DNA from: a virus
Direction: 5' to 3' (one strand)
Virus record (IMG/VR): IMGVR_UViG_3300025536_000015
Length of the DNA: 64,000 bases
Both the position numbers and the translations under genes were made by a program. This document shows positions 3,688-56,407 of this stretch, in pieces. The notes under the pieces are model-generated. The model was not told the DNA's origin. It did not search any database and saw nothing but the letters and a program-made list of their open reading frames with translations. Position 1 is the first letter of the stretch. Every line of letters starts with the position of its first letter.

Positions 3688-4668
3688 ATGGACCGCACGA
3701 AAATCGAATGGACAGATGCGACGTGGAACCCGCTCCGTGGTTGCTCGCGCGTGAGCGAGGGGTGCCGCAACTGCTACGCCGAGCGCGTGGCCGCGCGATT
3801 CATCGGCAAAGGACAGGCATACGAAGGCTTGGCCTATCGCCACTACGAGAACGACACCGTGGCCAACACGATCGACTATGAACCGCGTTGGACCGGTGAG
3901 GTTCGACTTATTCGAGAAGCGATGGATCAGCCGCTAAAATGGAAACGTCCTAGAAAAATCTTCGTGAACAGCATGAGCGATCTGTTCCATGAGAAGGTAA
4001 GCGACGGCGTGATCTGGCAAATATTCAACGTGATGCGCCGCGCGCATTGGCACACGTTTCAGGTGCTCACAAAAAGACCTGAGAGAATGCTGAGATGGTT
4101 CCAAGAGATTGATCGTGGGACACTACGAGACCGAGACTTCCAGTGGCCGCTTCCAAACGTCTGGCTCGGCGTCAGCGTCGAGACGCAGGGAAATGCCGAC
4201 AAGAGGATCCCGCTCCTGCTACGAACGCCGGCCGCCGTACGTTGGATCAGCGCCGAGCCGCTGCTTGGGCCTTTAGACATCTCGCAGTTTACGCCCGGCG
4301 GATGGGGTTGCTCCGGATGCGGATACCGAGAGAGAGGGAGCGTCGGTCGATGTTACGGCTACTGCCAGGACCCGAGCGGCAGGTCCTGCGATGCGGTGCC
4401 GTGTCCGCGGTGCGGCAAGCGCCACTACTGGACCGGCAGCGTGGCGTCAATCAAATGGGTTGTGGCCGGCGGCGAGAGTGGGCCAGGAGCTAGGCCGATG
4501 GACGTAGCGTGGGCCTGGGAGCTCAAGGACCAGTGCAATAAAACCAACGTGCCGTTTCTGTTCAAGCAGTGGGGGGAATACGGCGAGAACGGAAGGAAGG
4601 TAGGTAAAAAAGTTGCTGGCCGTCTTCTGCTTGGAAAAACCTACGACGAATACCCGGTGCCAGCGTGA
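3688..4668 (+). CDS. Gp37/Gp68-family (DUF5131) protein
   Basis: IEWTDATWNP..GC..VS.GC.NCYA, IFVNSMSDLFH, WLGVSVE, WVVAGGESG. Confidence 0.88.
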   Translation: MDRTKIEWTDATWNPLRGCSRVSEGCRNCYAERVAARFIGKGQAYEGLAYRHYENDTVANTIDYEPRWTGEVRLIREAMDQPLKWKRPRKIFVNSMSDLFHEKVSDGVIWQIFNVMRRAHWHTFQVLTKRPERMLRWFQEIDRGTLRDRDFQWPLPNVWLGVSVETQGNADKRIPLLLRTPAAVRWISAEPLLGPLDISQFTPGGWGCSGCGYRERGSVGRCYGYCQDPSGRSCDAVPCPRCGKRHYWTGSVASIKWVVAGGESGPGARPMDVAWAWELKDQCNKTNVPFLFKQWGEYGENGRKVGKKVAGRLLLGKTYDEYPVPA

Positions 4669-4835
4669 TGAGCCTGCTCGCCTACATAGCTATTTTATTT
4701 TGGTTCCTTAGCGCCACATCTGCGCCCGGAAATCAAGGCAAGGCGGAAATAAAAACGTCTGGACACACGGTCATGGCCATCTGGGATTTCTTGATAGTCC
4801 TGGCGCTATGCGGGCGAGTGTTAGGGTGGTGGTGA
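4668..4835 (+). CDS. Small two-helix membrane protein (not in ORF track)
   Basis: MSLLAYIAILFWFLS...AIWDFLIVLALCGRVLGWW; start overlaps upstream stop. Confidence 0.5.
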   Translation: MSLLAYIAILFWFLSATSAPGNQGKAEIKTSGHTVMAIWDFLIVLALCGRVLGWW

Positions 4836-4841
4836 CGCATC

Positions 4842-5651
4842 ATGCAGCAGGACATGAAGCAACGCGCCGAGAATGGCCTGCGCGACTACCTGATCTATCT
4901 GCGCGACAAGGGCGATGCCTCAGAATCGTATGCGGTCAAGCGAACATTCATGGAGCGATCGTCAGCCCGTGGCAACTGCGGCCCGCACAAGGCTCGAGGC
5001 GACTTCGGTACCATGGATGGAATTGGAGCCGATACAGCGCGTTCTCGTCGATCAGTGGACCTCTGGGAGAAGCGCAAGCTGAACTCGTGGCGTGCCGGGG
5101 GTCGCTTGACGGCAAGCGGCCTGCTGAGAGTGTCCACGCGTCTGGCAAAGCCGTGGACGTTGGAGCAGGTGGCGAAGGCGGCGCCCGAGGCGAACTTCTG
5201 GGACCACCTGGCCGCGCTCATAATTTTAGACGGAGTCGTGAGGAGGAGATTCATGGACTCGCTTAAAAACATTCGAGAGGTCGTCGAGGGAATAGCGGAC
5301 GAACGCCTTCAGCGGTCGCTGCTTGATCCAAACAACTCTGGCCCGATTCGGTCCCTGATCCGCGAAGAAATCGGCCACATGTTTGGAGAGTTGCTCGGCG
5401 TGATTCAACGCAAGGTTCCGCAGCAGGAGCCATCCGTCATGAGTCGCGGCCAACGCAAGTGCTCGCGTTGCGGCGTCCTGGGCCACACCGCCAAGACGTG
5501 TCAGGCCAGAGGTCCCGTGGCACCCGACAAGTGGGCTTGCATGAAATGCTCGGACAAGGAGGGGCGCACCCTGGACAACCCTGTTACCCATGAGGTCCGA
5601 TCGGAAGAGTTCCACGATAAAGACGACGAGACGCAAATTCAAGGAGAGTAG
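4842..5651 (+). CDS. Hypothetical protein with zinc knuckle
   Basis: CSRCGVLGHTAKTC motif near the C-terminus. Confidence 0.55.
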   Translation: MQQDMKQRAENGLRDYLIYLRDKGDASESYAVKRTFMERSSARGNCGPHKARGDFGTMDGIGADTARSRRSVDLWEKRKLNSWRAGGRLTASGLLRVSTRLAKPWTLEQVAKAAPEANFWDHLAALIILDGVVRRRFMDSLKNIREVVEGIADERLQRSLLDPNNSGPIRSLIREEIGHMFGELLGVIQRKVPQQEPSVMSRGQRKCSRCGVLGHTAKTCQARGPVAPDKWACMKCSDKEGRTLDNPVTHEVRSEEFHDKDDETQIQGE

Positions 5652-5652
5652 A

Positions 5653-5994
5653 ATGAACTACCGAGAAGAAGTCTTACGAAACTGTCCCAACTTCAGCACC
5701 GACACGTTGATGCAGAAGTTGAGCCTGAGCGGACTCGGCGTCGCAGGCGAGGCCGGTGAAGTTGCCGACATCATAAAGAAGGTCCTGCACCACGAAGTGC
5801 CGATCATGTCGGTGCGAGAAAAGCTGATCAAAGAGATGGGCGACGTCCACTGGTACCTCGAATATCTCGCAGCGACGCTCGGAACGACGACCGAAGAAGT
5901 GCAACGTCTGAACGTGGAGAAGCTCCGCGCCCGACATCCGAACGGATGGACGCCTGCTTCGCAACAGGCGAAGGCCGACGAGGCTCTGCGCTAG
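5653..5994 (+). CDS. mazG: MazG-like nucleotide pyrophosphohydrolase
   Basis: GVAGEAGEVADIIKK...EMGDVHWYL motif. Confidence 0.88.
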   Translation: MNYREEVLRNCPNFSTDTLMQKLSLSGLGVAGEAGEVADIIKKVLHHEVPIMSVREKLIKEMGDVHWYLEYLAATLGTTTEEVQRLNVEKLRARHPNGWTPASQQAKADEALR

Positions 5995-6182
5995 TGAAAA
6001 GCTCTAACCGGCGGCCGGTCGCGCAAGCGCCGGCGGTGGAACGCTCCGGGGTCCGCTCCTGCTTCGACAGGATCGGCTCGCCTCGACAAGGACTCCACGC
6101 CGCGATCCAGTTGGGCGTAGCGTCCGCGCTGATACCGCGGACCTGGATTGTCGCCGGGTATTATTTTTGTTGAAAATATATG

Positions 6183-6211
6183 TTGACAAACGCAACGGCA
6201 CATGCCAAAAT
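6183..6211 (+). promoter_or_regulatory. Sigma70-like promoter TTGACA-N17-CAAAAT
   Basis: Consensus -35, 17-nt spacer, AT-rich upstream tract. Confidence 0.65.
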
Positions 6212-6278
6212 CAAAACGCACCTGGACCGAGGCCAGAAACGGTCGGACCTAAGACGCAGAACGCAAAGGAGCCGAACA

Positions 6279-6533
6279 ATGTCCGACGTCGAATCCGCAC
6301 CGAAGATGTGCCTAAGATGCGCCCGTCGCGCGTTGGCTAAACTTCCCGCCAAGCCCTGCGGCGCCTGCCCGTTGCTCAACGTAGATCGCCTGGCCCAGGT
6401 TCGCGCCAACGCCGCGCGCCCGTCGCCCCTGCAACGGTTCACATTCGCCTCGGCCGAAGCCAACGCGGCTCAGGTGGAGCCTCTGGCGTATGGCGAGCAA
6501 CACCGCCTGACGTCGTGGGAGCGCGGCGAGTGA
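6279..6533 (+). CDS. Hypothetical Cys-containing protein
   Basis: AAGGAG SD; CxxC motifs. Confidence 0.55.
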   Translation: MSDVESAPKMCLRCARRALAKLPAKPCGACPLLNVDRLAQVRANAARPSPLQRFTFASAEANAAQVEPLAYGEQHRLTSWERGE

Positions 6534-6724
6534 AGTGCATGACCTACGTAGAAAAGCGCATGTACGGCCGCCCCGGCCCCTGCGAGTACCCGCGCGGCGT
6601 CAAGGTCGTCCGTTGGGCCCCGACGCCGATGACCACGAAGGTCATCAAAGGCCTCTGCGCCGCGCACAAGAAGGTCCTCGACGCAGGTCGGCGCATAAAG
6701 CTGGTCGACGGCACGATCCTATGA
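6530..6724 (+). CDS. Hypothetical protein
   Basis: GTGA-coupled ORF. Confidence 0.5.
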   Translation: MKCMTYVEKRMYGRPGPCEYPRGVKVVRWAPTPMTTKVIKGLCAAHKKVLDAGRRIKLVDGTIL

Positions 6725-6930
6725 GCGACACGCGCGAAGACTTAGCGATTAACAAAATCGCCGAGCAGGCGCGCCTGCACCGCGACCCGTTCCCGTGCGA
6801 CTCCTTTCGCGCGATGTCGGAGAGCATCCCGCTCTGCGACCGATGCGGTTGGGACGTCGGGCCGCACCTCGACCAGATACACGACGAAGCGCTCGAGATG
6901 GACGCCGAGCGCCGCGAGGACCCATCATGA
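6721..6930 (+). CDS. Hypothetical protein
   Basis: ATGA-coupled ORF; CDRCGW. Confidence 0.5.
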   Translation: MSDTREDLAINKIAEQARLHRDPFPCDSFRAMSESIPLCDRCGWDVGPHLDQIHDEALEMDAERREDPS

Positions 6931-7181
6931 TCCAAGAGCAAGACGACGACGTCATCCAGATCGGCAAGTTGCGCCGTCCCGGTCGTCCGGCCGCGTCCGT
7001 GACCTACGACCCCGGCTACGGCATGCGCGTCGACGGTGAAGGCGCTCCGCCCGACGCCGAGCAGGCCGCGCGGTGGGTCAAGGCTTCCGGCGGCTGGTTG
7101 CGCCTGCGCGGCGACGTACGACGGCTGGCCAAGGCTCATCCCGAGGTTGCCTACTTCCTAAAGGCGGTGCGCCGGCGATGA
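6927..7181 (+). CDS. Hypothetical protein
   Basis: ATGA-coupled ORF. Confidence 0.5.
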   Translation: MIQEQDDDVIQIGKLRRPGRPAASVTYDPGYGMRVDGEGAPPDAEQAARWVKASGGWLRLRGDVRRLAKAHPEVAYFLKAVRRR

Positions 7182-7798
7182 AAAAAGACACGATCGTGAT
7201 CGACCTCGACGGCACCCTGGCCGACGTGAAGCACCGCCGGCACTTGGTCGCCGGAAAGAAGCGCAACTACGAGGCCTTCCATGCCTTGCTCAAGCAGGAT
7301 CCTGTCAACACGCCCGTCGCTATGCTGATGAGCGGGATGGCGTTCTACGGACGAAGCCAATACACCGATAGCATCTATAAAGTCGTCATCGTCAGCGCAC
7401 GGCCAGAATCAGTCGTAGAAGAAACTCGCGTCTGGCTGATGTTGAACGAGATCCAGTACGACGAACTCCACCTGTTGCGCCCCACCGACGACAGCACCCC
7501 CGACCAGGAACTCAAGCGCGCCTGGCTGAACAAGTACGGCAAGGAGCGCATCCTGTTCGTCGTCGACGACCGAGCCAAGGTTGTAAAGATGTGGAGGGAG
7601 GAGGGCATCACCTGTCTGCAGTGCGACGATTGGGAGGAGAAGGATGCCCTGGAAAAGAAAGATCAGGTCCTGCGCGATCTCGCCAATCTTCTCGGGGGGC
7701 CGACGATGAGCTACTCGCCTGATTACGAGAGCAAAGAACGCGCCGCTAGAATAAAAAAAGCAGTTGAGATGATCGCCAAGGAGTTAAAATCAAAATGA
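7178..7798 (+). CDS. HAD phosphatase, PseT/polynucleotide-kinase phosphatase type
   Basis: VIDLDGTLAD, VSAR, K, VDDR motifs. Confidence 0.85.
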   Translation: MKKDTIVIDLDGTLADVKHRRHLVAGKKRNYEAFHALLKQDPVNTPVAMLMSGMAFYGRSQYTDSIYKVVIVSARPESVVEETRVWLMLNEIQYDELHLLRPTDDSTPDQELKRAWLNKYGKERILFVVDDRAKVVKMWREEGITCLQCDDWEEKDALEKKDQVLRDLANLLGGPTMSYSPDYESKERAARIKKAVEMIAKELKSK

Positions 7799-8145
7799 AA
7801 ATATGGATACTCGTCGCGCTCATGGCTGTGTGCGCGTCGGAGGTGGCCACGCCGGAAGCCCCTGCGGATGCCCCAGCGGCGCCGTCGGCCGACAAGCCGA
7901 AGGAAGACGAGAAGGAAACGCCGGAGGAGCTCAAGAAGCGCGCCCGCAAGCCGCCGGCCGAAGGCCCGTGCAAGATGTGCGAGCAGATGCGGCAACTAAA
8001 TCGCCTGCTCCTCTGCTATCCCTGCTGGCTCAAGGACAAGCTCCACAAGGACAGCGGCGGCACGTGGCTCCCCGGCGACCCGCACCCCGCCTCGTGCGGT
8101 TGCGACGGCCCCGGCGGGTGCTCGACCAAGCGGAGAGGCAATTGA
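7795..8145 (+). CDS. Predicted secreted Cys-rich protein
   Basis: MKIWILVALMAVCA signal-like start; several Cys pairs. Confidence 0.55.
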   Translation: MKIWILVALMAVCASEVATPEAPADAPAAPSADKPKEDEKETPEELKKRARKPPAEGPCKMCEQMRQLNRLLLCYPCWLKDKLHKDSGGTWLPGDPHPASCGCDGPGGCSTKRRGN

Positions 8146-8404
8146 GCGAGCCATCCCCTTACCGCGAGCTCGGAGTGCAGGCCGACGTGCGCTCCTTCGC
8201 CGCACGGGGCCTGCGTAAGCCCAATAAGAACCGCGAGCGCGACCTCTACTCAGGCGCGCCGGCGGCGGCCCGCGGCAACCACTACTGGGAGAACGTCTAC
8301 AGCCGCGCCGACGTCGTCAGCAACACGCAACGATGTCGGAAGTGCGGGCGCCCCAAGTTCGCCGTAGACGGCCTGCGATGCGCCGGCCGCAAAGGAGTCC
8401 GACG

Positions 8405-8728
8405 ATGATGAGCGAGGATTTATTGATTTGGGCCGAACAGCTGTCTCCGATCACAAAGCGCCAACCGACAGACTTCGATCGCGTGAAGGCAATAGTTGCC
8501 TACGCACGAACACTCGAACGAATGCTCGAGGAAAAAAGCGGAGGTGGGCAATGGGACCCAGGCGCGCGGCCACTGCCAAACCCAACAACCGACAATGAGA
8601 CGTTAGAGGGTCGGCTACGCGAAGACGATAGTCCGGTCATCCGGGCCTATTCGTGGAGCAAGGTCGACACGTTCTTATTTCTCGGCATTGCCGCCTTCTG
8701 CTTCCTGGCCTGGCTCAAAACGAGGTAG
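8405..8728 (+). CDS. Hypothetical protein with C-terminal transmembrane helix
   Basis: AAGGAG SD; hydrophobic C-terminus. Confidence 0.55.
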   Translation: MMSEDLLIWAEQLSPITKRQPTDFDRVKAIVAYARTLERMLEEKSGGGQWDPGARPLPNPTTDNETLEGRLREDDSPVIRAYSWSKVDTFLFLGIAAFCFLAWLKTR

Positions 8729-8763
8729 GCCTAAAGACCCATACAAAAATAGGCCCTATGCCA

Positions 8764-8792
8764 TTGACATACCGCATGGCATATGCCATACT
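8764..8792 (+). promoter_or_regulatory. Sigma70-like promoter TTGACA-N17-CATACT containing palindrome ATGGCATATGCCAT (8776-8789)
   Basis: Direct reading; lies 43 nt upstream of ATG 8835. Confidence 0.7.
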
Positions 8793-8834
8793 AAAGCAAG
8801 AAGCAAGGACGAACCAAAGAGAGGTAGCAAAAAA

Positions 8835-9167
8835 ATGAAAAGCGAGATTACGAAGGTGACCTGCGAAGAAGCCGAAGACCAGATCGAACAAATCTCCGCC
8901 CTGCTCGGCGTGAACGGCCACGACGAACTCGGCGGCGGCCTCGTCGGGTTCGTGTTCGCGCACCCGACCAAACAAGACGTCACGCTCACGTTCGGCTACG
9001 CCCAGGGCCCGCTCGGCCATAGCGAGTTTGACGACGCGACCGGGCAACCGGGCGACTGCGGCGACATGCCCGAGGACGGACCGCACGACGCCGCCGCCCA
9101 GGCGGACTACATCAAGAGCGTCTGCGCGCGCCTCGGCTACGTCATCCCGACGACGGATGGCCGCTGA
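8835..9167 (+). CDS. Hypothetical protein
   Basis: GAGGT SD, downstream of promoter. Confidence 0.6.
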   Translation: MKSEITKVTCEEAEDQIEQISALLGVNGHDELGGGLVGFVFAHPTKQDVTLTFGYAQGPLGHSEFDDATGQPGDCGDMPEDGPHDAAAQADYIKSVCARLGYVIPTTDGR

Positions 9168-9168
9168 C

Positions 9169-9417
9169 ATGACCAGGCACCAAGCCAAACATAAGCAAAC
9201 GTTCGCGCAACGCGTCGCTGACCCGGACAAGGCCACGCTCGACGGTTCATTCGTAGAGAGCATCGTTATGACCGCCGCCAACAACGAACGCACGGCGGAC
9301 GACATCTGGGCCATGTGGATCGAGTACGTCCGCACATGCGAGGGCTACGACCAAAGCCCCGTCTTCCGAGAATTTTGCAACTGGAACAAGCTCGCCGGCG
9401 CGGGGCCGCTCTCATGA
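9169..9417 (+). CDS. Hypothetical protein
   Basis: Tightly packed ORF. Confidence 0.5.
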   Translation: MTRHQAKHKQTFAQRVADPDKATLDGSFVESIVMTAANNERTADDIWAMWIEYVRTCEGYDQSPVFREFCNWNKLAGAGPLS

Positions 9418-9608
9418 TCGCCGCCGACTACATGCTTCGTCGCCGCCTATTGCTCAAGGACATCAAGCATCTCCGCGACCAGATAGTAGTTATCACGACA
9501 CGCGTGGCGCAGATGCAGGCGTCCGCTGATCGATTAAACCAACAGGCCGACCGATTATGCCGAGAGTTGGCATCCCTTGACAGAAAAAAATCGCAGGAGG
9601 GACAGTGA
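9414..9608 (+). CDS. Small coiled-coil protein
   Basis: ATGA-coupled ORF with heptad pattern. Confidence 0.45.
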   Translation: MIAADYMLRRRLLLKDIKHLRDQIVVITTRVAQMQASADRLNQQADRLCRELASLDRKKSQEGQ

Positions 9609-9922
9609 GACATATCAGCCAAAGCCTGGCCTGCCTGTTGGTTGCCGCCGCCGCCGCAACCTTGAGCGGGTGCGTCGCCACCCGTGACGACCTCCGCCGC
9701 GCCGACGAGGCCTTCCTGCGCGCCGGGCTGACCGTCGCTCAGGCGGAGGCGCAGCTCGGGACATCCACGGGCCCCGTCACCGTCCTGGCGACCGCGCGCC
9801 GCAGTTGCACCACCGCGCGCTACACCCGAATCTACGGCCTGGCCGGCATGGCCCCCGTCAACGACTACTACCTGACCTACTGCGGCGGCCGGCTCGTCAC
9901 CTGGGTGATCGAACGACGATGA
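9605..9922 (+). CDS. Predicted lipoprotein
   Basis: Signal peptide ending in lipobox LSGC. Confidence 0.65.
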   Translation: MRHISQSLACLLVAAAAATLSGCVATRDDLRRADEAFLRAGLTVAQAEAQLGTSTGPVTVLATARRSCTTARYTRIYGLAGMAPVNDYYLTYCGGRLVTWVIERR

Positions 9923-10161
9923 AGACGCGCTTCCCCGAGATCGGCATGACCGTCCGCAAGCACTACAAGTGCGCCTGCGGCCGTTGGGTCACGCGCTCGA
10001 AACGCTTCTACCAGACGATAAACCCATACAACGTCACGGCCAGCGGCTTCATGAAGGACCAGTACCAGATCCTCGCGGAGTGCCGCCAGGAAGCCGCCGC
10101 CTGGACGCGCAAAAAGGATCCATGCACCCACAGCGCCCACGCCGTCAAGGAGATCAGATGA
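9919..10161 (+). CDS. Hypothetical zinc-ribbon protein
   Basis: ATGA-coupled; KCACGRW. Confidence 0.5.
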   Translation: MKTRFPEIGMTVRKHYKCACGRWVTRSKRFYQTINPYNVTASGFMKDQYQILAECRQEAAAWTRKKDPCTHSAHAVKEIR

Positions 10162-10376
10162 ACCGCGCCACGCTCGAGGAAGCCGAGGTCAAGTGCCGCC
10201 GCATCGGCACGCTCATCGGCAAGGACATGCCCGCCGGCTGGGGCTTCACCCTCATCCTGACCAGCTTCGGCGACAACGGCTACAGCACCTACCTCAGCAA
10301 CTGCCAGCGGCCCGACATGATCAAGGCCCTGCGCGAGATGGCCGACAAGCTCGAGAGCGGCGCACCGCAGCGATGA
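10158..10376 (+). CDS. Conserved hypothetical protein
   Basis: AAGGAG SD; GFTLIL...YLSN..R.DMI.ALRE. Confidence 0.55.
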   Translation: MNRATLEEAEVKCRRIGTLIGKDMPAGWGFTLILTSFGDNGYSTYLSNCQRPDMIKALREMADKLESGAPQR

Positions 10377-10603
10377 GCGAAAACTTGGATCCGTTCTGCC
10401 CGCATTGCAAACAGGCGATTGTCCCGCGTTATATTCGGATTCACCATATCCCGATGTGTGCCGATCTCGCCGCCGCAAGGGCCGCGCTGATGAAGATCGA
10501 CGACCGCGTGAACAATGAAGGCGATGACTCTCAGGCTTGTGTCAGCGATATTGGACACATTGCCCGCGCGGTCCTCGCCAAGCACACCGGGGGCAAGCCA
10601 TGA
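10373..10603 (+). CDS. Hypothetical protein
   Basis: ATGA-coupled; FCPHC. Confidence 0.45.
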   Translation: MSENLDPFCPHCKQAIVPRYIRIHHIPMCADLAAARAALMKIDDRVNNEGDDSQACVSDIGHIARAVLAKHTGGKP

Positions 10604-10752
10604 GCCAAGATAAAGTTCATAAATGCCGTGGAGACTACCGCACGGTTTGCGGGAAGAAATGCGGGAGAGTGTGGTGCCGAGGCCGCAATGGCAGAATTAA
10701 AGTAACCTGCCTGCGCTGTCGCCGCGTCTCCCCCAAGGGCGCGGGCAACTGA
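10600..10752 (+). CDS. Small Cys-rich protein
   Basis: ATGA-coupled; TVCG...VTCLRC. Confidence 0.45.
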   Translation: MSQDKVHKCRGDYRTVCGKKCGRVWCRGRNGRIKVTCLRCRRVSPKGAGN

Positions 10753-10896
10753 CGCGCGACACAGATCGATGGGTGGCCGCGCTGAACAAGCTCGCCCGAG
10801 ATATGGACGAGAATGCCGAGGCGATGCACGAAAGCGCCTGGAAAGAACAACTGGCCCCAGAGCGCGAGGCCTACACGAATCTGGCGAAACGCGGCC

Positions 10897-11010
10897 CTAC
10901 TGCGCGCAGGTGTTCGGCCAGACGCAAGGCTTAAACTGAGCGGCCGCCGGCGCGGGCCGGAGCGCGGCCCAGGCGAGCAGGAGCAACACGACGATCGCGG
11001 TGTTTTTCAT
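10897..11010 (-). CDS. 37-aa secreted peptide precursor MKNTAIVVLLLLAWAALRPAPAAA-QFKPCVWPNTCAQ
   Basis: Manual translation; n/h/c signal peptide ending AAA; 13-aa mature part with C-x5-C; too short for the ORF track. Confidence 0.65.
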   Translation of the reverse strand: MKNTAIVVLLLLAWAALRPAPAAAQFKPCVWPNTCAQ

Positions 11011-11072
11011 GCGCTCATCTTAGCGTAGCCCCCCGGCCGCGGTCCTTGACCGGAGTCAACTCCTCCCACTAT

Positions 11073-11102
11073 TTGCGTCAGGCGTATAAGCCCTGTTACC
11101 AT
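11073..11102 (+). promoter_or_regulatory. Candidate promoter TTGCGT-N18-TACCAT upstream of terS
   Basis: Extended -10 TG; same architecture as 18459 and 24752. Confidence 0.4.
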
Positions 11103-11109
11103 ATGACGC

Positions 11110-11760
11110 ATGCCGAGGAAGAAATCGGGCGAGGGAATCCAACAATACGAGGCCTTCGAGACCTGGTTCTGGATGCACCCGCGCTCGTTCGATAAGTTGG
11201 CGGAAGGCTTGAAAGTCACCTCCTCGATCGTGCGCGTCTGGCACGCAAAATATCGGTGGGAGGAACGCGCCGAGGAACGCGAGAAAAAGATCAAGACAGA
11301 CCTCGCCAACAAGAACGACGCCGAGGCGGTCAAGCAGCGCTCCAACATCATCAACGTGATGCAGGCCACCATGGCGCGCTACGCCGCCCGCCTGCTCAAA
11401 GACCCTGCGGTGCGCGACCAGCACGGCGTCACGCAGTACGAGCCGACTGCGGCCGACGCGGTCCGCGCCGCCCAGTTGCAGATCGTATTGGGAGGCGGGG
11501 CCACGAGCCGCACCGACATCACGATGGGCTCAGGCTTCACCGACGCCCTGCTCGCCATGGTGGGTGCCACCCTGCGCCGCGAGCTTCCGACCTGTTGCCC
11601 GAACTGCCGCGCCGACCTGGGCGGCCTGCCGGGGCGCATCAGCATGAAGCTCATCGAAGCCGCCTCCGGCCTGGCGGCCGACGCCGCCGCCGCCGTTCCG
11701 GTGCCGTTAGCGGGCTCCGTGGGCCGCGCCGAGAACCCCGACGAAGCGGGGCCGGAGTGA
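11110..11760 (+). CDS. Probable terminase small subunit
   Basis: N-terminal HTH (RSFDKLAEGLKVTSSIVRVWHAKYRWEER); position before TerL. Confidence 0.7.
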   Translation: MPRKKSGEGIQQYEAFETWFWMHPRSFDKLAEGLKVTSSIVRVWHAKYRWEERAEEREKKIKTDLANKNDAEAVKQRSNIINVMQATMARYAARLLKDPAVRDQHGVTQYEPTAADAVRAAQLQIVLGGGATSRTDITMGSGFTDALLAMVGATLRRELPTCCPNCRADLGGLPGRISMKLIEAASGLAADAAAAVPVPLAGSVGRAENPDEAGPE

Positions 11761-11960
11761 ACTCCCTGCGCGACCCGAAGGCGCTCGCCGGCAACGACCA
11801 GGACGGAACGATCTGGTGCGGCCTCTGCGCCTGGACGAGCAAGGCGCGCACGGTGGAGCTCGTAGAACACCGCGTCCAACAGCACCTGGCCGCAGCGCAC
11901 GGCCGGCGCGCGTTGTCGCGGTTCGACCACGACCTGCAGAAAAAGGTGATGCTCCCGTGA
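11757..11960 (+). CDS. Small C2H2-type zinc-binding protein
   Basis: WCGLCAW...HRVQQHLAAAH; GTGA-coupled at both ends. Confidence 0.5.
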   Translation: MNSLRDPKALAGNDQDGTIWCGLCAWTSKARTVELVEHRVQQHLAAAHGRRALSRFDHDLQKKVMLP

Positions 11961-13519
11961 TCCTGCAAAGCGCCGCGCCCGCCTTCGACCAAGCCGCCAT
12001 CGCCCGCCTCCCGTTTGCCGCCCTGGTCGCCAGCAGCATGCGCACCCTGGCGCGCGGCATCGACTCCGAGCACGTGCGCCTGCGCGACTTCTTCCGGCCC
12101 GCCTGGGGCATCGTCAACCCCGGCGTGCAGTACGTCCCGAACTGGCACAACGACCTGATCGCCGAGCATCTCGAGGCCGTCCACCTGGGCCAGATCAAGC
12201 TCCTCGACATCGAGATGCCCCCCCGCATGGGCAAGAGCTTCCACGTCTCGGTCGCCTTCCCGGCCTGGGAGTGGACCGAGGACGCCGGCGAGCGCTTCCT
12301 GTTCTCGTCGTACAACCAGAAGCTCTGCAACCGCCACAGCCTCGACCGCCGCGCCGTGATCTCGAGCGCGTGGTACCAGAAGAAGTGGGGCGAGTTCGTC
12401 ACCCTAGCCCCCGACCAGAACCTCAAAACGGAGTTTCAAAACACCGCGCGCGGGCACATGATCACGGCCCCGTTCGGCTCGAGCGGCACGGGGTCCGGCG
12501 GCCGGCGCCTGGTCATCGACGACCCGCTCAACCCGAAGCAGGCGAGCTCGAAGGTGCAGCGCGAGGCCGCCCACGACTACTACCGCGGCACCCTCTCCAC
12601 CCGCCTCGACGACGAGCACCACAGCGCGATCATCATGGTCGCCCAGCGCACCGACGTCGACGACCTGCAGGGCAAGTTCGTCAACGAGAAGGACGGCTGG
12701 ACGGTCCTGAAGATCCCGATCCAGGCCAAGAGCCGCACGGTGTACATCTTCCCGATTTCCAAGACGGAGAAGGTCTACGAGGCCGGCGAACTGCTCTGCC
12801 CGGCCCGCAAGTCGCAGAAGGGCGTCGACGCCCTGCGCAAGGCACTCAGCAACCGCGCGGCCGCGCAGCTGGACCAGGAACCGGAAGCGGCGAGCGGAAA
12901 CCTGTTCCCGCGCAACAGCTGGAAGAAGATGACGGAGATGCCCACGCCGCTATTCATCCTTAACGCCTGGGACACCGCCGTCAAGGAGCGCGAGGAAAAC
13001 GACCCGAGCGCCGGCCTTTGCATCGTCCTCCACGAGGGTGGCTTCCATTTCTGCAAAGGCGTCACGCACGGGCATATGCGCTTCTCGGAATTGAAACTCG
13101 CCGTGCGCGAGAGGTTTGACCTCGACCGCCCCGACGCCGTCTTCATCGAGGACAAGTCCAGCGGCCAGCAACTGATCCAGGAGTTCCAAGACGACCGCCA
13201 GGTGAACATGCCGCTCGTCGTGTTCAACCCCGACGACGAGGGGCCCGAGGCCGAGGCTTGGAAAGCCTGGTTCAAGATGGACAAGTACGCGCGCGCCCAA
13301 CTCGTTCAACCCTTGTGGGCCGCTGGCCGAGTGTCCTATGATCCGAACATGGAAGGCGCCGCCGACATGATCGCCGAGTTTGCGTCTTTTCCCAAAGGCC
13401 TTAAGGACCGCGTCGACGCCGGCGTCCACGGCGTGCGCTACTTGTCCCGCCTCAACCTGAACGCCCCGCCGACCGAGGAGGTCGAGCAGGCCGACGGCGA
13501 CATCACCGACGGACTCTAG
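11957..13519 (+). CDS. Terminase large subunit
   Basis: Walker A PPRMGKS, Walker B VIDDP, nuclease AWDTA...DRVDA; start probably GTG 11957. Confidence 0.92.
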   Translation: MILQSAAPAFDQAAIARLPFAALVASSMRTLARGIDSEHVRLRDFFRPAWGIVNPGVQYVPNWHNDLIAEHLEAVHLGQIKLLDIEMPPRMGKSFHVSVAFPAWEWTEDAGERFLFSSYNQKLCNRHSLDRRAVISSAWYQKKWGEFVTLAPDQNLKTEFQNTARGHMITAPFGSSGTGSGGRRLVIDDPLNPKQASSKVQREAAHDYYRGTLSTRLDDEHHSAIIMVAQRTDVDDLQGKFVNEKDGWTVLKIPIQAKSRTVYIFPISKTEKVYEAGELLCPARKSQKGVDALRKALSNRAAAQLDQEPEAASGNLFPRNSWKKMTEMPTPLFILNAWDTAVKEREENDPSAGLCIVLHEGGFHFCKGVTHGHMRFSELKLAVRERFDLDRPDAVFIEDKSSGQQLIQEFQDDRQVNMPLVVFNPDDEGPEAEAWKAWFKMDKYARAQLVQPLWAAGRVSYDPNMEGAADMIAEFASFPKGLKDRVDAGVHGVRYLSRLNLNAPPTEEVEQADGDITDGL

Positions 13520-13534
13520 CGAGGAGAACCGATT

Positions 13535-15253
13535 ATGCCCCCTAAGAAAACGACGTCCGCTGCTCCGAAGCCTGACGACAACGCGCCAGTTCTCGAGGAG
13601 TACGGTTCGGTGCTCAACAGCATCCGCGACGAGCTCGCTGCACAGCCGTGGGCCGTGGCGACGTCGAACAGCGATGAGTTCGAGGAAGGCGCGCCGCGCA
13701 GGACGCTCGTCGAGACCATCCCCGGCGGCGGCGTGAAGGTGACGGAGGGCGGACAAACGAAGATCATCAAGGCCGGGAAGAAGCTGACGGAGGCTGAGGC
13801 CGGTGACACCTTCAACCGCACGCTCTACAGCGAGGGAGGCTTGTCCGAAGGATACCTGACCAACGAAGCGCGCGTCGTCGCCATGCGCCAGTCGCTGATC
13901 ATGTACCGCGACGACCCCATGTATCGCGCCATCATTGACGGCTTCACATATTTCGTCATCGGCAAGGGCCTGAAGTTTAAGGCGCGCGACGAGAACCCGG
14001 CGGTGCAGGAACACCTCGACGCCTTCTGGAAGGAGTCTAAGATGGACGGCCGCGACGCCGACATCGTCCGCCGCTTCTTCAAGTACGGCGAGGTCCTCAT
14101 CCGCTACTTCAAGACCGGTGCCGGCGGCGGCCTGGCCAAGACGCCGCGCGTGCGCCTCGTTCCGTTCTGGCGCATCGACACCATGAGCGTCGACGCCGTG
14201 GATCCAGAGACGCTCAAAGGATTTAAGCTGAACAACTACAACGTCGAAGGCTTCAGCAGCGGTCCCGCCGAGGAGCTGGCCGCCGACGACGTACAATATC
14301 TTGTACATTCCGAGAACAGCGGCGGCCGCGGCGAGCCGCCGTTTCTCGTCGCCATGCGAGCCTGCAAGTGGTACGCCGACTTCATCCTCAACCGCGTCAC
14401 CCTCAACCGCTACCGTACCGCCTTCGTGCTGTTCAAAAAGATCACGGCTGCAGGGCCGAGTCGCGTGAGCACGGTGGACAACGCGGCGAGCAACGCGACG
14501 GCAACCGGCAAGAACGGCCAGCCGCAGAAGCGCCTGCCGAAGCCGGGCACGGTGGTCGTCCATAACAGCGGCATCGAGTACGAGTGGAAGTCCCCGCAAA
14601 CCGGCGCGATCGACGGCCAGGCCGACGGCAAGATGATCAAATCATACATCGCCGCCGGCGCGATGGTCCCCGAGTTCCTGCTCGGCGACGCCTCCCAGGC
14701 CAACCAGGACAACAGCCTCGTCGCCGACAACCCGTTCGTGCGCAAGGTCGAGTTTTATCAGGACTACTTCGAGGACGTCTTCGGCGAGATGTTCAAGCGC
14801 GTCATCGAGCAGGGCATCGCCACCGGCAAGATCCCGAAGACAAGCACCGAGACCGTGCTCACTGAGGCCGGGGCCATGAGACGCACGACCGCGCGCGCGT
14901 TGCGCAAGATCGGATTCGCCGAGGCGGCCGCCGCGATTGAGAAGCCCGGCAAGACCACAAAGGCTGTGCCTACCAGCACGGCTGTCGACATTGACTGGCC
15001 GACCCTCATCCAGAAGGACGCGCTCAAGGAAGCGCAGACGCTGGCGATCGACGCCAGCCTGGGCCTCGTGTCTGTCGAGACGATGCGCGGCAAGCGCGGC
15101 TACGACGACGAGGTCGAGGAGAAACGCCTCGAGCGCGACCGCGAACAGGGCCAGGACGCCATGGCCGCGGCTCGGGACGAGGAGATCGACGCCGAGGACG
15201 GCGACGAGCAGAACCCGCCCGCGAAAACCAAAAAAGACAAGGGAGCCGAATAA
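13535..15253 (+). CDS. Portal protein
   Basis: Size and position after TerL; portal-like pattern with acidic C-terminus. Confidence 0.82.
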   Translation: MPPKKTTSAAPKPDDNAPVLEEYGSVLNSIRDELAAQPWAVATSNSDEFEEGAPRRTLVETIPGGGVKVTEGGQTKIIKAGKKLTEAEAGDTFNRTLYSEGGLSEGYLTNEARVVAMRQSLIMYRDDPMYRAIIDGFTYFVIGKGLKFKARDENPAVQEHLDAFWKESKMDGRDADIVRRFFKYGEVLIRYFKTGAGGGLAKTPRVRLVPFWRIDTMSVDAVDPETLKGFKLNNYNVEGFSSGPAEELAADDVQYLVHSENSGGRGEPPFLVAMRACKWYADFILNRVTLNRYRTAFVLFKKITAAGPSRVSTVDNAASNATATGKNGQPQKRLPKPGTVVVHNSGIEYEWKSPQTGAIDGQADGKMIKSYIAAGAMVPEFLLGDASQANQDNSLVADNPFVRKVEFYQDYFEDVFGEMFKRVIEQGIATGKIPKTSTETVLTEAGAMRRTTARALRKIGFAEAAAAIEKPGKTTKAVPTSTAVDIDWPTLIQKDALKEAQTLAIDASLGLVSVETMRGKRGYDDEVEEKRLERDREQGQDAMAAARDEEIDAEDGDEQNPPAKTKKDKGAE

Positions 15254-15254
15254 C

Positions 15255-15548
15255 ATGAAGACCATCGACATCGAAGAAGCCGAGAAGAACAAGATCGGGG
15301 CCGCGGACCTTCGCGCCCTTTGCACCGAAGCCTACGTCGACCTGTCTGTAGGCACCGACGACGACCTGCGCAAGCTACGCGACATGATGATAAAGAAGCA
15401 CGGCAAGGTGCTCAAGGGCTTCTCCGACCTCGGCGACCAACGCTACTCCTCGCCCGAGGGCAACGAGTACATGCGCGACATGAACTACTACAACGAGCTC
15501 ATCCGACGGATCGAGAACGAAATGTCGTACCGGATGATCACGCTCTAA
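15255..15548 (+). CDS. Hypothetical protein
   Basis: GGAG SD; coding-like ORF. Confidence 0.55.
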   Translation: MKTIDIEEAEKNKIGAADLRALCTEAYVDLSVGTDDDLRKLRDMMIKKHGKVLKGFSDLGDQRYSSPEGNEYMRDMNYYNELIRRIENEMSYRMITL

Positions 15549-15554
15549 ACCGCC

Positions 15555-15764
15555 ATGGCCTCGCAGATGCCGCAGGAAAAGATCACGCTCCACTTGGACC
15601 TGTTGTGCCCAGTGTGCCGTGAGAACTTGGCCGGGCCAACGACGCAGGGCGTGGCCAAGCTCGGCCTAAACTTTCAAGAGATATTCCTGCAGCTGCCTCT
15701 GATCAAGAGCCGAGCCTGGGGCGGCTTCATGGTCAAGCACGTCCATCGGTGTCACCTGAACTGA
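15555..15764 (+). CDS. Hypothetical protein
   Basis: Packed ORF; CPVC. Confidence 0.45.
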   Translation: MASQMPQEKITLHLDLLCPVCRENLAGPTTQGVAKLGLNFQEIFLQLPLIKSRAWGGFMVKHVHRCHLN

Positions 15765-15767
15765 AAC

Positions 15768-15992
15768 ATGATGACTCGCGAGAACGTCCTGCGCAAGATC
15801 GCGTCTCTGAACAAGCTGGCCGCGGCCGGATCCGGCGCGACGCATGCCGAGCGCGACACCGCTCGAGCGATGGCCTCCAAGCTTGAGCGAATCTATCCAC
15901 CTGAAAAAACAGGAGATGGAGTCCAATGGTCGTATCAAAATGGAGCCGCTGAAATACGATTTACCTGGTCAACAGACACGACGACCTATTAA
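15768..15992 (+). CDS. DUF2786-like small protein
   Basis: VLRKIASLNKLA..GATHAERDTA..MA.KL. Confidence 0.55.
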   Translation: MMTRENVLRKIASLNKLAAAGSGATHAERDTARAMASKLERIYPPEKTGDGVQWSYQNGAAEIRFTWSTDTTTY

Positions 15993-16006
15993 ACTGGGAG
16001 GACTGC

Positions 16007-16507
16007 ATGCCGAACGATAAAGCGCCGGACTACACGACGAAGACCACGCGGCCGTGGGGCCACTTCCGACTGCTCGACCAAGGCCCCGGCTTCATCGTCA
16101 AAGCCATGCTGGTCAAAGGCGAGCAGCGCCTGAGTCTGCAACGGCACACGCATCGCGAGGAGCGCTGGACCGTTGCCATGGGGAACGCGGTCGCCACTGT
16201 TTCAGGGGTGAAACACGCGCTCGCTGCCGGAGACTCGGTTGTGATCCCGCGTGGTGCCGCGCACCGCCTGGCCAACCCCGCCAAAGAGCCGCTCATGGTT
16301 GTCGAGGTCTGGCTCGGCAACGACCTGCGCGAGGACGACATCGAGCGCCTCGAGGACGACTACGGACGCGTCGAGTTCGCCAAAGGTGGCGTGATCAGTG
16401 GCCCCCCCAAAGACATCAAGATCGGCAACGGCGAGAAGGAGCACGTTGTCCCGCTCAAGGAGACGAAGCACATCGAAAAGCACCCTGGCGGAAGGAACTG
16501 GGAATGA
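16007..16507 (+). CDS. Mannose-6-phosphate isomerase type II (ManC C-terminal) cupin with extra C-terminal motif
   Basis: RPWG...LSLQRH.HREE.W...HRL.N...VEVW.G..L.EDDIERLEDDYGR. Confidence 0.88.
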   Translation: MPNDKAPDYTTKTTRPWGHFRLLDQGPGFIVKAMLVKGEQRLSLQRHTHREERWTVAMGNAVATVSGVKHALAAGDSVVIPRGAAHRLANPAKEPLMVVEVWLGNDLREDDIERLEDDYGRVEFAKGGVISGPPKDIKIGNGEKEHVVPLKETKHIEKHPGGRNWE

Positions 16508-16734
16508 ATCCCCCAGAGGATAGTCGCTTCCAGTACGCGCACGGCCTGGTCTGGGACCGCGAGACCGAGCAGGGCGTGCCGCGCGCCAAGAACAACCCGC
16601 CGTCCTGCGACCGCGTCGCGGCGCTTTCGTGCTGGACGCCGAAGCCAAGGGTGATGCACGTCTACCGCCTACCAAACGGCCAGCACGTCTGGCAATGGGA
16701 GCCGCAGCCTCCCGGCGGTCAATATGCCCGCTGA
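16504..16734 (+). CDS. Hypothetical protein
   Basis: ATGA-coupled ORF. Confidence 0.45.
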   Translation: MNPPEDSRFQYAHGLVWDRETEQGVPRAKNNPPSCDRVAALSCWTPKPRVMHVYRLPNGQHVWQWEPQPPGGQYAR

Positions 16735-17887
16735 TCTGCCAGACGACGCGATAAGAATCCGCAACCTCTACCCGGTCATGAAGTGCGACCGCTCGGTGTG
16801 GAAGCGGATCATTGCTCTCTGTCGGAAAGGCGACGAAGCCAGCGTGTCCGCGGCCGAGGACCTGGCCAAAGCTTGCACCTCGAGGACTACGCGAACGCGC
16901 GCGCTACACATCGGCGCTCTCCGCAAGCGCGTTATGCGCCGTGCCTTCCTAGTCCAGCAGAAGCGCGATGAGCATGTCACGGCGGACGCGCTGCGCACGC
17001 TGGCCGACCGCGCGGACACGATCTTAAACCGATACGGGAAAACCGGCGCCATTCCTTCGAACCGATATCCGTCGATCGTAAGAGACCTATCCGATCGGAA
17101 CAAAGAGGCCTACGCGACCATTGCTCAGGGCTTCCAGGCCGCTCTCCGGGCCGCCGTCAAAGTGGGCCTCTCCCACTCCATGCAGAACGCGGAGGCCGTT
17201 GTAGCCCACGCCAGAGGCAAAACCACTGAGCAGGAATGGGCTGACCTGGAGCTTGTGTACCGATCCGGCTGCTACGTCTACGTTCCGCTTGACGAGGCCG
17301 ACCCTCTGAACCAGCAACTGACCTACGCGCCGAGCAGCAACGTTTTCAAAAAGCTGTTCAAAGGCGCGCTCAAGGACACGATGACGGCAGGGCTGTTCGG
17401 CAAGAGCAAGCGCGTTTCGAGCAGGGTCTGGGACCTGCGCGGCCAGAACATGGCGCAGATGAAGCGACTCGTGTCCGGCGGCATCGCCCGCGGCGAAGAC
17501 CCGGCCACGATCAGCCGCGCCATTCGGGGCCTACTCGTCCAACCGAAGACCCTGCGCGGCGCGGCGCGCGCTGATGCGACGCCAGGCGCTGGTTCATACA
17601 GGTCAGCCTACGCCAACGCCATGCGCCTCACGCGCACCGAGACCAACCGCGCCTACATCCTATCCGACACGATCTTCGCCGACAAGAAGGGCTGGAATCT
17701 GATCTGGCAGGTCAGCGCCGGCCAGCGCGAGGAGGACGAGTGCGACGACTTGGGTGGCAAGGAGATGACCCCGGAGGAGTTCGCTGACAATTATCCGCAA
17801 CATCCGCAGTGCTTGTGCTATTCAATTCTCGCGCCGAAAACGGAGTTCGATAGCCCGCTTTCGGACACGCCGGCGGACCCCGAATGA
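16724..17887 (+). CDS. Head morphogenesis / minor capsid protein (SPP1 gp7, Mu gpF-like)
   Basis: RLTRTETNRAY...W...ECDDL...PQHPQCLC. Confidence 0.8.
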   Translation: MPADLPDDAIRIRNLYPVMKCDRSVWKRIIALCRKGDEASVSAAEDLAKACTSRTTRTRALHIGALRKRVMRRAFLVQQKRDEHVTADALRTLADRADTILNRYGKTGAIPSNRYPSIVRDLSDRNKEAYATIAQGFQAALRAAVKVGLSHSMQNAEAVVAHARGKTTEQEWADLELVYRSGCYVYVPLDEADPLNQQLTYAPSSNVFKKLFKGALKDTMTAGLFGKSKRVSSRVWDLRGQNMAQMKRLVSGGIARGEDPATISRAIRGLLVQPKTLRGAARADATPGAGSYRSAYANAMRLTRTETNRAYILSDTIFADKKGWNLIWQVSAGQREEDECDDLGGKEMTPEEFADNYPQHPQCLCYSILAPKTEFDSPLSDTPADPE

Positions 17888-17907
17888 TGCGTCAAAAAGC
17901 AGTCAGG

Positions 17908-18037
17908 TCTAATGGATTGGAAGTCGCATATACGCGAGTTCCAATGGGTTGGATATCCAATGGGTTGGACAAACAGTCCAATGGGTTGGATATTTCGCCG
18001 CCCCCTATAAGGTACTTAAAGACAATTTGTAAAGACA
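17908..18037. repeat. Second copy of origin elements: iterons TCCAATGGGTTGGA (17940, 17956, 17977; degenerate 17908) plus 35/37-nt copy of the AT-rich tract
   Basis: Iterons are the reverse complement of those at 555-604; 18001-18037 matches 615-651 in direct orientation. Confidence 0.88.
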
Positions 18038-18071
18038 TGGTAGACAACCGCCCCCGCTTTTTAGAAAAAAG

Positions 18072-18239
18072 ATGAACAACAGCATATGCCAAGTCAGCGG
18101 TAAGATCATGCACGCGACCGCAGCGGCTGCGCACCGCCATATTCCGCGGAGAGGCGGCAAGCGAGAACGCGGCACGGCCTACCGTTGCGGCTACTGCCAC
18201 CACTGGCATACGACCTCGAGCATGACATCTCGATCATGA
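18072..18239 (+). CDS. Small zinc-finger protein (not in ORF track)
   Basis: CQVSGK...AYRCGYCHHWHTTS. Confidence 0.55.
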   Translation: MNNSICQVSGKIMHATAAAAHRHIPRRGGKRERGTAYRCGYCHHWHTTSSMTSRS

Positions 18240-18240
18240 C

Positions 18241-18444
18241 ATGACCGGCTACGAGCGCGACCCGTTGGTCAAGTGCGCACGTCAGCGACCAGTGTGCGGC
18301 CACACTCGCCGCGAGCACGGCAATGGGAAATGCTTCGGCGTGACCTTCGCTGTTGGCGTGGCCGGCGACTGCCACTGCAAGGGGATGATGGAGCCGCCGG
18401 ACCCAGCGCGATTTGCACGCGAAGGCGAGAGAGTTGACGAGTGA
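18241..18444 (+). CDS. Small Cys/His-rich protein
   Basis: CGH...EH...C...C.C. Confidence 0.45.
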   Translation: MTGYERDPLVKCARQRPVCGHTRREHGNGKCFGVTFAVGVAGDCHCKGMMEPPDPARFAREGERVDE

Positions 18445-18458
18445 TGACAAAAATATAT

Positions 18459-18488
18459 TTGCGTTGCGAACTGCCCGCATGGTATAAA
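18459..18488 (+). promoter_or_regulatory. Candidate promoter TTGCGT-N18-TATAAA
   Basis: Extended -10 TGGTATAAA; AT-rich upstream; 30 nt before the SDR start. Confidence 0.55.
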
Positions 18489-18517
18489 CTTCCCAACATG
18501 ATCTACAAAGCCAGCTG

Positions 18518-19513
18518 ATGCGTGCGCTGATCACCGGAGCAAACGGATTCGTTGGTTCCCACCTCATTGAGCATCTGATTTCAATCGGCGCTGAAGTCCA
18601 CGGCACGATCAGATCATTCCGCAGTGACCTCTCCAACCTGGCGCACATCGATCCCGTCACGTATACGATTCATTTTTGTGACATCACCGACGAAGTGGCG
18701 ATCACTGATCTCGTCGCGCGATTGATGCCCACGCACATCTTTCACCTGGCCGCGCACTCCTACGTGCCGACGTCTTGGGACGCGCCGCACGCAACGATCG
18801 ACGCGAACATCAAAGGGACGCTAAATCTTCTTGAGGCGGTGCGCCGCAGCGCACCTGGGGCGCGAGTCCAGGTGGCCGGGTCCAGCGAGGAGTATGGCCG
18901 CGTCGAAGCGCACGAAGTACCCATCGCGGAATCGCAGCCGCTGCGCCCGCTCTCGCCTTACGGCGTGTCGAAGGTCGGGGCTGAGATGTTCGCGCTGCAA
19001 TACGCCGCCAGCTACAATTTACATGTGATCGTCACACGGTCGTTTAACCACACCGGCCCGCGCCGCGGGAAGGTCTTCGCCGAAAGCGACTGGGCGAGGC
19101 AGGTCGCGCTCATCGAGGCAGGCTTGCAAGAGCCTGCCATTATGCACGGAAATCTTGACGCGATCCGCGACTACACCGACGTCCGCGACATTGTGCGCGG
19201 CTACGTCATGGCGATCGACAACGGACAGACCGGTGAGGTCTACAATCTCTGCTCAGGATCCGATGCGTCCCCGACCATGCGCCAAGTTCTCGACAACCTC
19301 TGCGCGCTCGCGCACGTCAATGTGACGAAGGTGCAGGACCCGAAGCGCATGCGTCCGTCGGACGTTGCGCGTTTGGTCGGCAACGGGATGAAAGCCCGTC
19401 TTGCTTTTGGATGGGAGCCGAGCATTCCGCTTGCGCGAACTTTGGCCGACCTGCTACAGTATTGGCGATCGACACTGCACGCCACAGGGTCGAAGATTCC
19501 GGAGCCTGCTTAG
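18518..19513 (+). CDS. GDP-mannose 4,6-dehydratase/Rmd-like extended SDR
   Basis: GANGFVG, HLAAHSYV, GSSEEYG, YGVSK, FNHTGPRR, GNLDA.RDYTDVRD. Confidence 0.88.
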   Translation: MRALITGANGFVGSHLIEHLISIGAEVHGTIRSFRSDLSNLAHIDPVTYTIHFCDITDEVAITDLVARLMPTHIFHLAAHSYVPTSWDAPHATIDANIKGTLNLLEAVRRSAPGARVQVAGSSEEYGRVEAHEVPIAESQPLRPLSPYGVSKVGAEMFALQYAASYNLHVIVTRSFNHTGPRRGKVFAESDWARQVALIEAGLQEPAIMHGNLDAIRDYTDVRDIVRGYVMAIDNGQTGEVYNLCSGSDASPTMRQVLDNLCALAHVNVTKVQDPKRMRPSDVARLVGNGMKARLAFGWEPSIPLARTLADLLQYWRSTLHATGSKIPEPA

Positions 19514-56405: not shown

Positions 56406-56407
56406 AT

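Follow-up and report, generated by a model that had tools for sequence, protein, structure and literature searches.

Iteron plasmids such as P1 (incA) and F (incC) carry an extra cluster of initiator-binding repeats (iterons) away from the origin, which controls copy number by titration or handcuffing; these extra clusters are without an unwinding element and lie on stably maintained, low-copy replicons. In the Bacillus phage SPP1 there are two origins, each composed of repeats and an AT-rich unwinding element, with oriL inside the initiator gene 38 (PMC6316719, PMC3485210, PMC5737612) and oriR in a late segment where three moron genes interrupt the head genes (PMC6316719). The SPP1 initiator gp38 (G38P) binds oriL and oriR about equally tightly, and gp38 at oriR has been proposed to stall forks and so bring about the switch from theta to sigma replication, with a RusA-like resolvase, an exonuclease and an annealase as the proposed tools (PMC6316719, PMC3485210, PMC5737612). 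The lambda origin, made up of iterons and an AT-rich tract, is situated midway along gene O, whose product works as a dimer; for unwinding, a pair of iterons together with the tract is enough (PMC7466680). Here, we analyze a 64,000-nt stretch of an uncultured tailed phage (IMG/VR record IMGVR_UViG_3300025536_000015; hereafter the window), in which the elements of a putative lambda-type origin within the initiator gene rep (site 1) recur inside the operon of head genes (site 2). We think it probable that the phage maintains, at site 2 (about 17908-18060), a second copy of its own lambda-type origin module and that this copy is comparable to oriR of SPP1. The arrangement is known from SPP1, and this phage is a new example of it.

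Elements of the putative rep origin recur behind a head gene

In the window, a circularly assembled genome of 65,591 bp with 62.6% guanine plus cytosine (GC) is shown in rotated form; the underlying contig, C72, measures 65,649 bp including a 58-bp terminal overlap, and window positions 55765-64000 wrap round to the contig start. The two sites and the open reading frames (ORFs) in and around them are as follows, numbered as in the window:

228-1049, + strand: rep initiator gene, encoding an O-type N-domain, an origin-holding linker and a Cys-rich C-terminal domain
555-604, + strand: site 1 iterons, three exact TCCAACCCATTGGA 14-mers at 555, 571 and 591 (rep codons 110-126)
615-651, + strand: site 1 AT-rich 37-mer, 35% GC, with two TAAAGACA repeats (rep codons 130-142)
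16724-17887, + strand: MuF/gp7-like head morphogenesis gene (Pfam Phage_Mu_F, E 0.003, below the cut-off; synteny)
17884-18075, + strand: 63-codon carrier ORF of site 2 (ORF63), coupled by ATGA overlaps to both neighbors
17908-17921, - strand: degenerate iteron with 2 mismatches, rotated
17940-17990, - strand: site 2 iterons, three exact 14-mers at 17940, 17956 and 17977, with the center TGGG on the + strand
18001-18037, + strand: site 2 AT-rich 37-mer in direct orientation, 35/37 identical to the site 1 copy

A first-pass annotation, made from the letters of the window, had described the repeats of both sites, and we found coordinates and sequences as it gave them, both for the three dyads and the AT-rich 37-mer in rep and for the three exact reverse-complement iterons, the degenerate copy and the direct 37-mer at site 2. 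Each iteron is built from 5-bp palindromic arms around an asymmetric 4-bp center, CCCA. At site 1 the iterons are spaced by 16 and 20 nt; at site 2, counted from the degenerate copy, by 32, 16 and 21 nt. The window contains seven matches to TCCAACCCATTGGA (six exact and one with 2 mismatches) against 0.33 expected, and none of 100 shuffles reached seven. When any center is allowed (TCCAANNNNTTGGA, or TCCAA-N4-TTGGA), the motif occurs at six places in the window, all within sites 1 and 2; the exact 14-mer likewise has six copies in the whole 3.09-Mb genome bin, every one of them within the two sites. The recurrence of the 37-mer with 2 mismatches compares with 0 expected by chance.

The two sites, which lie about 17.4 kb apart, are colinear. 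At both, TATAAGG lies 29 nt from the last iteron, and the AT-rich minima reach 30% GC, which puts them in the lowest 0.08% of 40-nt windows, where they belong to the six poorest in GC across the 65.6-kb genome. The iterons and the 37-mer are alike between the sites whereas the spacers have diverged, with 1/6 and 3/10 positions identical, and beyond the 37-mer a weaker similarity continues for about 20 nt more. Conserved elements set among diverged spacers are the outcome that selection on the elements would be expected to produce.

Site 2 lies in ORF63, which begins at an ATG overlapping the stop codon of the MuF-like gene (ATGA) and ends in a TGA that shares bases with the ATG of the following ORF. 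Just as the first-pass annotation had noted for this coupled frame, the PPIRYLKTICKD part of its translation resembles PPIRNLKTISKD of Rep. ORF63 matched no Pfam family and had no homologue. The claim that the site sits in a head operon is also borne out by its neighbors, with terminase, portal and MuF-like genes upstream and the capsid gene downstream.

In-place rotation of the site 2 iterons

Each iteron of site 2 is turned by 180 degrees in place. Since the order of the array is kept and the AT-rich stretch remains direct, the flip is not one block inversion. Positions 554-585 and 17939-17970 form an exact 32-nt inverted repeat, and the first iteron pair, with its palindromic TA spacer, could have been turned as one 32-nt unit. 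Physically, rotation leaves an iteron the same duplex, so binding of a protein to site 2 should be as good as to site 1, only with the protein facing the other way. Wrong-strand annealing at the palindromic arms, for example through RecT, might have produced the rotation, and this would then be an undescribed route of iteron-array evolution. That the rotation of every site 2 iteron is a selected feature and not an accident seems to us decidedly doubtful. Were it selected, the polarity of the Rep-DNA complex would be reversed relative to the unwinding element, and this could make a polar fork trap of the origin or load the helicase in the reverse direction.

Both junctions in an independent assembly

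The first-pass annotation had raised misassembly as a concern, and an independent k=31 assembly of the source run, obtained from Logan as contigs and unitigs, supports both junctions. One unitig of 17,413 bp covers 556-17968 at a depth of 92.3, and a second of 48,234 bp runs from 17941 round the circle to 583 at a depth of 92.8; the link between them is a 32-nt node (554-585) with a depth of 220, which is the inverted repeat of 554-585 and 17939-17970. In L008 the MuF-like gene runs without a break into the degenerate and first iterons, and in the Logan record one sequence unites the site 2 iterons, the AT-rich stretch and the genes downstream. Misassembly is excluded as far as contigs allow. 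The stretch is present in the source run alone, and no independent sample of the same phage was found. As a further observation, the 32-nt inverted repeats bound a 17.4-kb segment with replication and packaging genes; the k=31 graph is satisfied by this segment lying either way round, and the repeats could allow it to invert.

The putative origin within rep and its distribution

Rep residues 5-98 match Phage_rep_O (PF04492) with an E-value of 2.4e-15 and 57.3 bits against a gathering cut-off of 28.7, and the site 1 iterons and AT-rich 37-mer fall in the linker beyond this N-domain. Site 1 is a putative lambda-type origin within its own initiator gene, and the 37-mer is its presumed DNA-unwinding element.

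Full-length Rep homologues (n=15) are 41-55% identical. Diverged Reps of other samples carry the same iteron in the linker (L014 and L015, 46% identical; L011, 34%), followed by a related AT-rich start, TATAAGG, 3 nt and TTAAAGA, and the 55% identical P0002 has a linker of the SNPLD type at the protein level. In an alignment of full-length Rep homologues, the iteron-coding linker is absent from 13/16, and the SNPLD-repeat linker with its AT-rich insert shows as an insertion in P0001-P0003. The in-gene origin thus belongs to part of the Rep family only, and other Rep phages must keep their origin elsewhere. Reps of the P0012 type (L023 and L024; the L023 Rep is at L023:10001-10906) have linkers free of iterons, and no cluster of iterons turned up in the 10 kb to each side.

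Relatives at the MuF junction

Relatives were found through the MuF protein. In L010, whose MuF, portal and capsid proteins are 63%, 65% and 77% identical to those of the window phage, the same junction contains five exact and one near-exact iterons, all in normal orientation, and, 30 nt from the last iteron, an AT-rich start that shares 22 identical nt with site 2. The sequences flanking the module cannot be aligned with the window. Here too, the carrier is an ORF coupled by ATGA at both ends, 145 codons long and not called as a gene. The iterons are read in different frames, giving SNGLD and PMGWI in the window and SNPLD, PTHWT and VQSIG in L010, and the conservation is therefore at the DNA level. 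In shuffled sequence, the carrier frame is open by chance in 1.8% of cases for ORF63 and in 0.2% for its L010 counterpart; most likely the frame stays open so that ribosomes can translate across a cis element within the operon, as at site 1. The L010 contig begins 9.3 kb upstream of MuF, and the rep gene is not on it.

Searches of other collections returned little. Blastn of 17600-18520 against GenBank phages gave no match, and tblastn of Rep against phages gave only distant O proteins below 35% identity. In IMG/VR we found one distant Rep, no MuF match and no occurrence of the exact 30-mer, and 400 genomes of the bin's order contained no MuF homologue.

Three other relatives have repeats of their own in the AT-rich slot after MuF. 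In L020 (L020:11180-11325) a 16-bp palindrome, GTTCCGCTAGCGGAAC, is present in three full copies, one of them mismatched, and a fourth is cut by the contig end; two contigs end inside this cluster. The slot of L032 (L032:3276-3555) contains GGGACG-type hexamers and AAGACTGAGAA repeats, and that of L033 (L033:3846-3975) contains ACCTAACCTT decamers and a TTTTACG palindrome. These repeats may be each phage's own second origin copy. The MuF homologues P0032 and P0033 (L033:2226-3845 and L032:1665-3275) are 61-66% identical and about 150 amino acids longer, with Hint/intein domains, which would mean an intein inside a head morphogenesis protein.

Iteron loci without Rep or MuF context (L012, L013 and L016) were left out of the comparison as unrelated or of doubtful standing. 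L012:3020-3160, from a soil contig of 60 kb, holds the 14-bp core in an intergenic array of 21-bp period, CCnACCCATTGGAAAAATC, with different flanks; L013:631-868, on a marine contig, holds eight copies of the 14-bp core at a 32-bp period; and the iteron pair of L016 comes from a cyanobacterial bin. Other elements whose binding domains are related may use the L012 and L013 arrays as origins.

Comparison with SPP1, lambda and iteron plasmids

To set this layout beside that of SPP1, we examined the SPP1 record (X97918) and found a 48-nt match of 87.5% between gene 38 nt 395-441 and 4901-4948. The latter is the oriR slot, the gap directly after gene 7 and before gene 8. The gene 7 product matches Phage_Mu_F at E 6.8e-33, compared with the weak match of the MuF-like gene in the window. 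In both phages, one origin copy lies in the initiator gene and a second, with repeats and an AT-rich element, in the late region; in both, this second copy directly follows a gene of the gp7/MuF family, moron genes intervene and the capsid module lies downstream; and this phage, too, encodes a RusA-like resolvase and a RecT-type annealase. The initiators, by contrast, are unrelated (BLASTP E 1.5), with gp38 matching Phg_2220_C only and this Rep matching Phage_rep_O. The second copy of SPP1 is direct and non-coding, whereas here the iterons are rotated and the module lies in a coupled ORF. Host and phage lineage also differ, the present phage being a subsurface phage of 62.6% GC, and initiator binding, shown in SPP1, is inferred here. 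As Rep is unrelated to gp38, the comparison suggests an SPP1-like way of working and not a homologue of the SPP1 initiator system.

The likeness to lambda consists in the O-family N-domain, in mid-gene iterons with internal dyad symmetry that are followed by an AT-rich tract, and in the translation of the iterons as part of the linker. A second origin is, to our knowledge, not found in lambda or its relatives. Rep differs from lambda O in its Cys-rich C-terminal half, no recognizable P-type loader gene adjoins rep, and the iterons are three of 14 bp here but four to six longer ones in lambda. With iteron plasmids, the phage shares a second cluster of initiator repeats apart from the origin. 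Unlike those plasmids, it retains the AT-rich element at an unchanged distance, and the 50 ORFs scanned, which cover part of the genome, included no maintenance genes.

A proposed role for site 2 and its alternatives

Among the functions put forward by the first-pass annotation, a second origin appears the best supported as far as sequence goes. We favor it because site 2 has at least three exact iterons and an AT-rich stretch at the site 1 distance, because the diverged L010 keeps the module at the same junction, and because the layout repeats that of oriL and oriR in SPP1. We infer an origin-type second site that is bound by the initiator. In the mechanism we propose, Rep, presumably as a dimer, would bind the three exact iterons of site 2 as well as those in rep, and with the AT-rich stretch at the same 29-nt distance the complex could melt DNA there. 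Site 2 might then serve as an auxiliary or late initiation site, or Rep bound to it might obstruct forks from the primary origin. A block of this kind, if processed by the RusA, RecT and nuclease of the phage, would promote the switch from circle-to-circle replication to concatemers, as proposed for SPP1.

Several observations weigh against this reading. The closest relative, L009 (MuF 78% identical), runs straight from the MuF stop codon to a homologue of the 55-amino-acid ORF downstream of site 2 (ORF55); L034 is without the module in the slot after MuF, and L017 and L018 have a gene for 122-128 amino acids there. With the module absent from L009 and L034, the site is dispensable in the phage group, and at the MuF junction it is known from two phages only. 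Conservation in relatives, a check proposed by the first-pass annotation, is mixed: the module is present in L010 and absent from these two. Furthermore, the rotated iterons would make Rep face the opposite way relative to the AT-rich tract, and productive melting might thereby be prevented; gene conversion from site 1 could account for the likeness of the elements even if site 2 were under no selection; and the fork-barrier role is a proposal in SPP1 too.

The first-pass annotation had also offered titration or handcuffing, in which site 2 would soak up Rep or, through Rep-Rep contacts, pair with site 1, limiting or timing initiation without ever firing. The exact iterons, with the equal affinity expected of them, and the distance of 17.4 kb from the origin would suit such a site, and rotated iterons might disable firing yet keep binding. 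This idea is possible but leaves the AT-rich element unexplained if titration is all that happens, for titration needs no AT-rich stretch, yet both the stretch and its distance are kept in the window and in L010. The placing of nearly all genes on one strand and the lack of an integrase or partition gene among the scanned ORFs are, moreover, unlike the lifestyle of a low-copy plasmid, and we regard titration as unlikely. Less likely still is a functionless remnant, neutral or selfish, left when a fragment of the rep linker of a related phage was captured by illegitimate or short-homology recombination. Its presence varies among close relatives with clean boundaries (L009), the contents of the slot vary in L017, L018, L020, L032 and L033, and the frame and the peptide PPIR.LKTI.KD resemble the rep linker, all as capture would have it. 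A remnant, though, would decay evenly, whereas here the elements are exact and the spacers diverged. The iterons are exact in two phages whose proteins are 61-77% identical, their number and spacing have been remodeled while their sequence was kept, and simple capture would not rotate each iteron while the AT-rich stretch stays direct.

ORF63 could, in principle, be a real small protein, a paralogue of the Rep linker, with the DNA likeness as a by-product. It is open and coupled at both ends, as is its counterpart in L010, but there is no Pfam family or homologue to place it with, the iterons fall in different frames, the carrier ORFs show no likeness beyond the DNA elements and gene calling gave nothing at the L010 position, which makes this account highly improbable. 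An artefact of assembly, be it a chimeric join or a collapsed repeat, might be suspected of a metagenome-bin genome whose sequence occurs in the source run only. The equal depths of the two unitigs, the depth of the 32-mer they share and the same architecture in the unrelated sample of L010 leave it with hardly any probability at all.

If site 2 is indeed a second origin module, the comparison reaches beyond this phage. Studies of the two-origin layout have in essence been confined to a single model phage, SPP1, for whose second origin a function has so far only been proposed. The same layout with an unrelated initiator family suggests a recurrent, probably convergent arrangement that answers some general problem of phage replication, for instance timing, the switch to concatemers or coupling to late transcription. 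Iterons that are direct (L010) or rotated (the window), and a site that is absent (L009), provide natural variants for asking which features a second origin requires. Annotators should treat AT-rich repeat clusters that follow MuF-like genes as candidate origin-type sites, as opposed to junk or small genes.

A promoter-like site downstream of the module

Two further groups of features follow site 2:

18072-18444, + strand: two small Cys-rich ORFs of 55 and 67 amino acids, downstream of site 2
18459-18492, + strand: promoter-like site TTGCnT, 17 nt, TGnTATAA (extended -10), after an A/T-rich stretch

The 67-amino-acid ORF has tblastn matches in L009 and L010, and similar small ORFs stand there in L017, L018 and L032; the 55-amino-acid ORF has a tblastn match in L009 only. 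The site at 18459 precedes the GDP-sugar dehydratase gene, lies about 420 bp downstream of the iteron module and is kept in a five-way alignment (for example, L009:5169-5200 and L010:11077-11108). It was not flagged by a consensus promoter scan. It probably drives the sugar and capsid genes. The first-pass annotation had pointed to this site in suggesting that site 2 links initiator binding to late transcription. As it is kept in L009, which is without iterons, and in L032 and L033, which have other repeats, the link to the promoter is unsupported, and we have dropped it. At site 2 itself, a terminator search found none, the sole promoter-like match of the scan (17966-17994) was at chance level and an Rfam search gave no match at E up to 1.

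Genome context and the C-terminal half of Rep

Coding is almost wholly on the + strand across the phage genome. GC skew falls steadily without an origin signal, because nearly all genes are on one strand. The early and replication genes comprise an SF1 helicase, RecT, a candidate PD-(D/E)XK nuclease, HNH, several DNA methylases, ThyX and a MazZ-like diphosphohydrolase, after which come rep, RusA, a further methylase and DUF5131. The late genes follow in the order small and large terminase, portal, cupin and the MuF-like gene, and the last of these is syntenic with the portal, cupin and MuF genes of relatives. On the 3' side of site 2, sugar-pathway genes precede the major capsid gene at 23711. 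Families of integrase or partition proteins were absent from the 50 scanned ORFs. The genes that bear on the proposed processing of forks, and the helicase gene beside them, are these:

1370-1726, + strand: RusA-type Holliday-junction resolvase gene (Pfam RusA, E 9.8e-9)
52597-54114: SF1 helicase gene
54413-55723, + strand: RecT-family annealase gene (Pfam RecT, E 1.9e-25)
55782-56405, + strand: candidate PD-(D/E)XK nuclease gene (PDDEXK_1, E 0.0029, weak)

Immediately behind rep, the ORF at 1046-1363 (105 amino acids) matched no Pfam family, and neither a DnaB-type helicase gene nor a loader gene is evident adjoining rep. Sequence searches found no relative of Rep with a solved structure. The C-terminal half of Rep (amino acids 150-273) contains the near-invariant residues C221, C224, C236, C239, C242, C245 and C266, a pattern that suggests zinc ribbons where lambda has its P-binding domain. 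Directly before rep, at L031:654-2067, which is just upstream of window position 1 on the circle, lie ThyX (E 1e-53) and a protein with a dATP/dGTP diphosphohydrolase N-domain (E 7e-16). Together with at least four DNA methylase genes, ThyX and the diphosphohydrolase hint at modified DNA or manipulation of the nucleotide pool.

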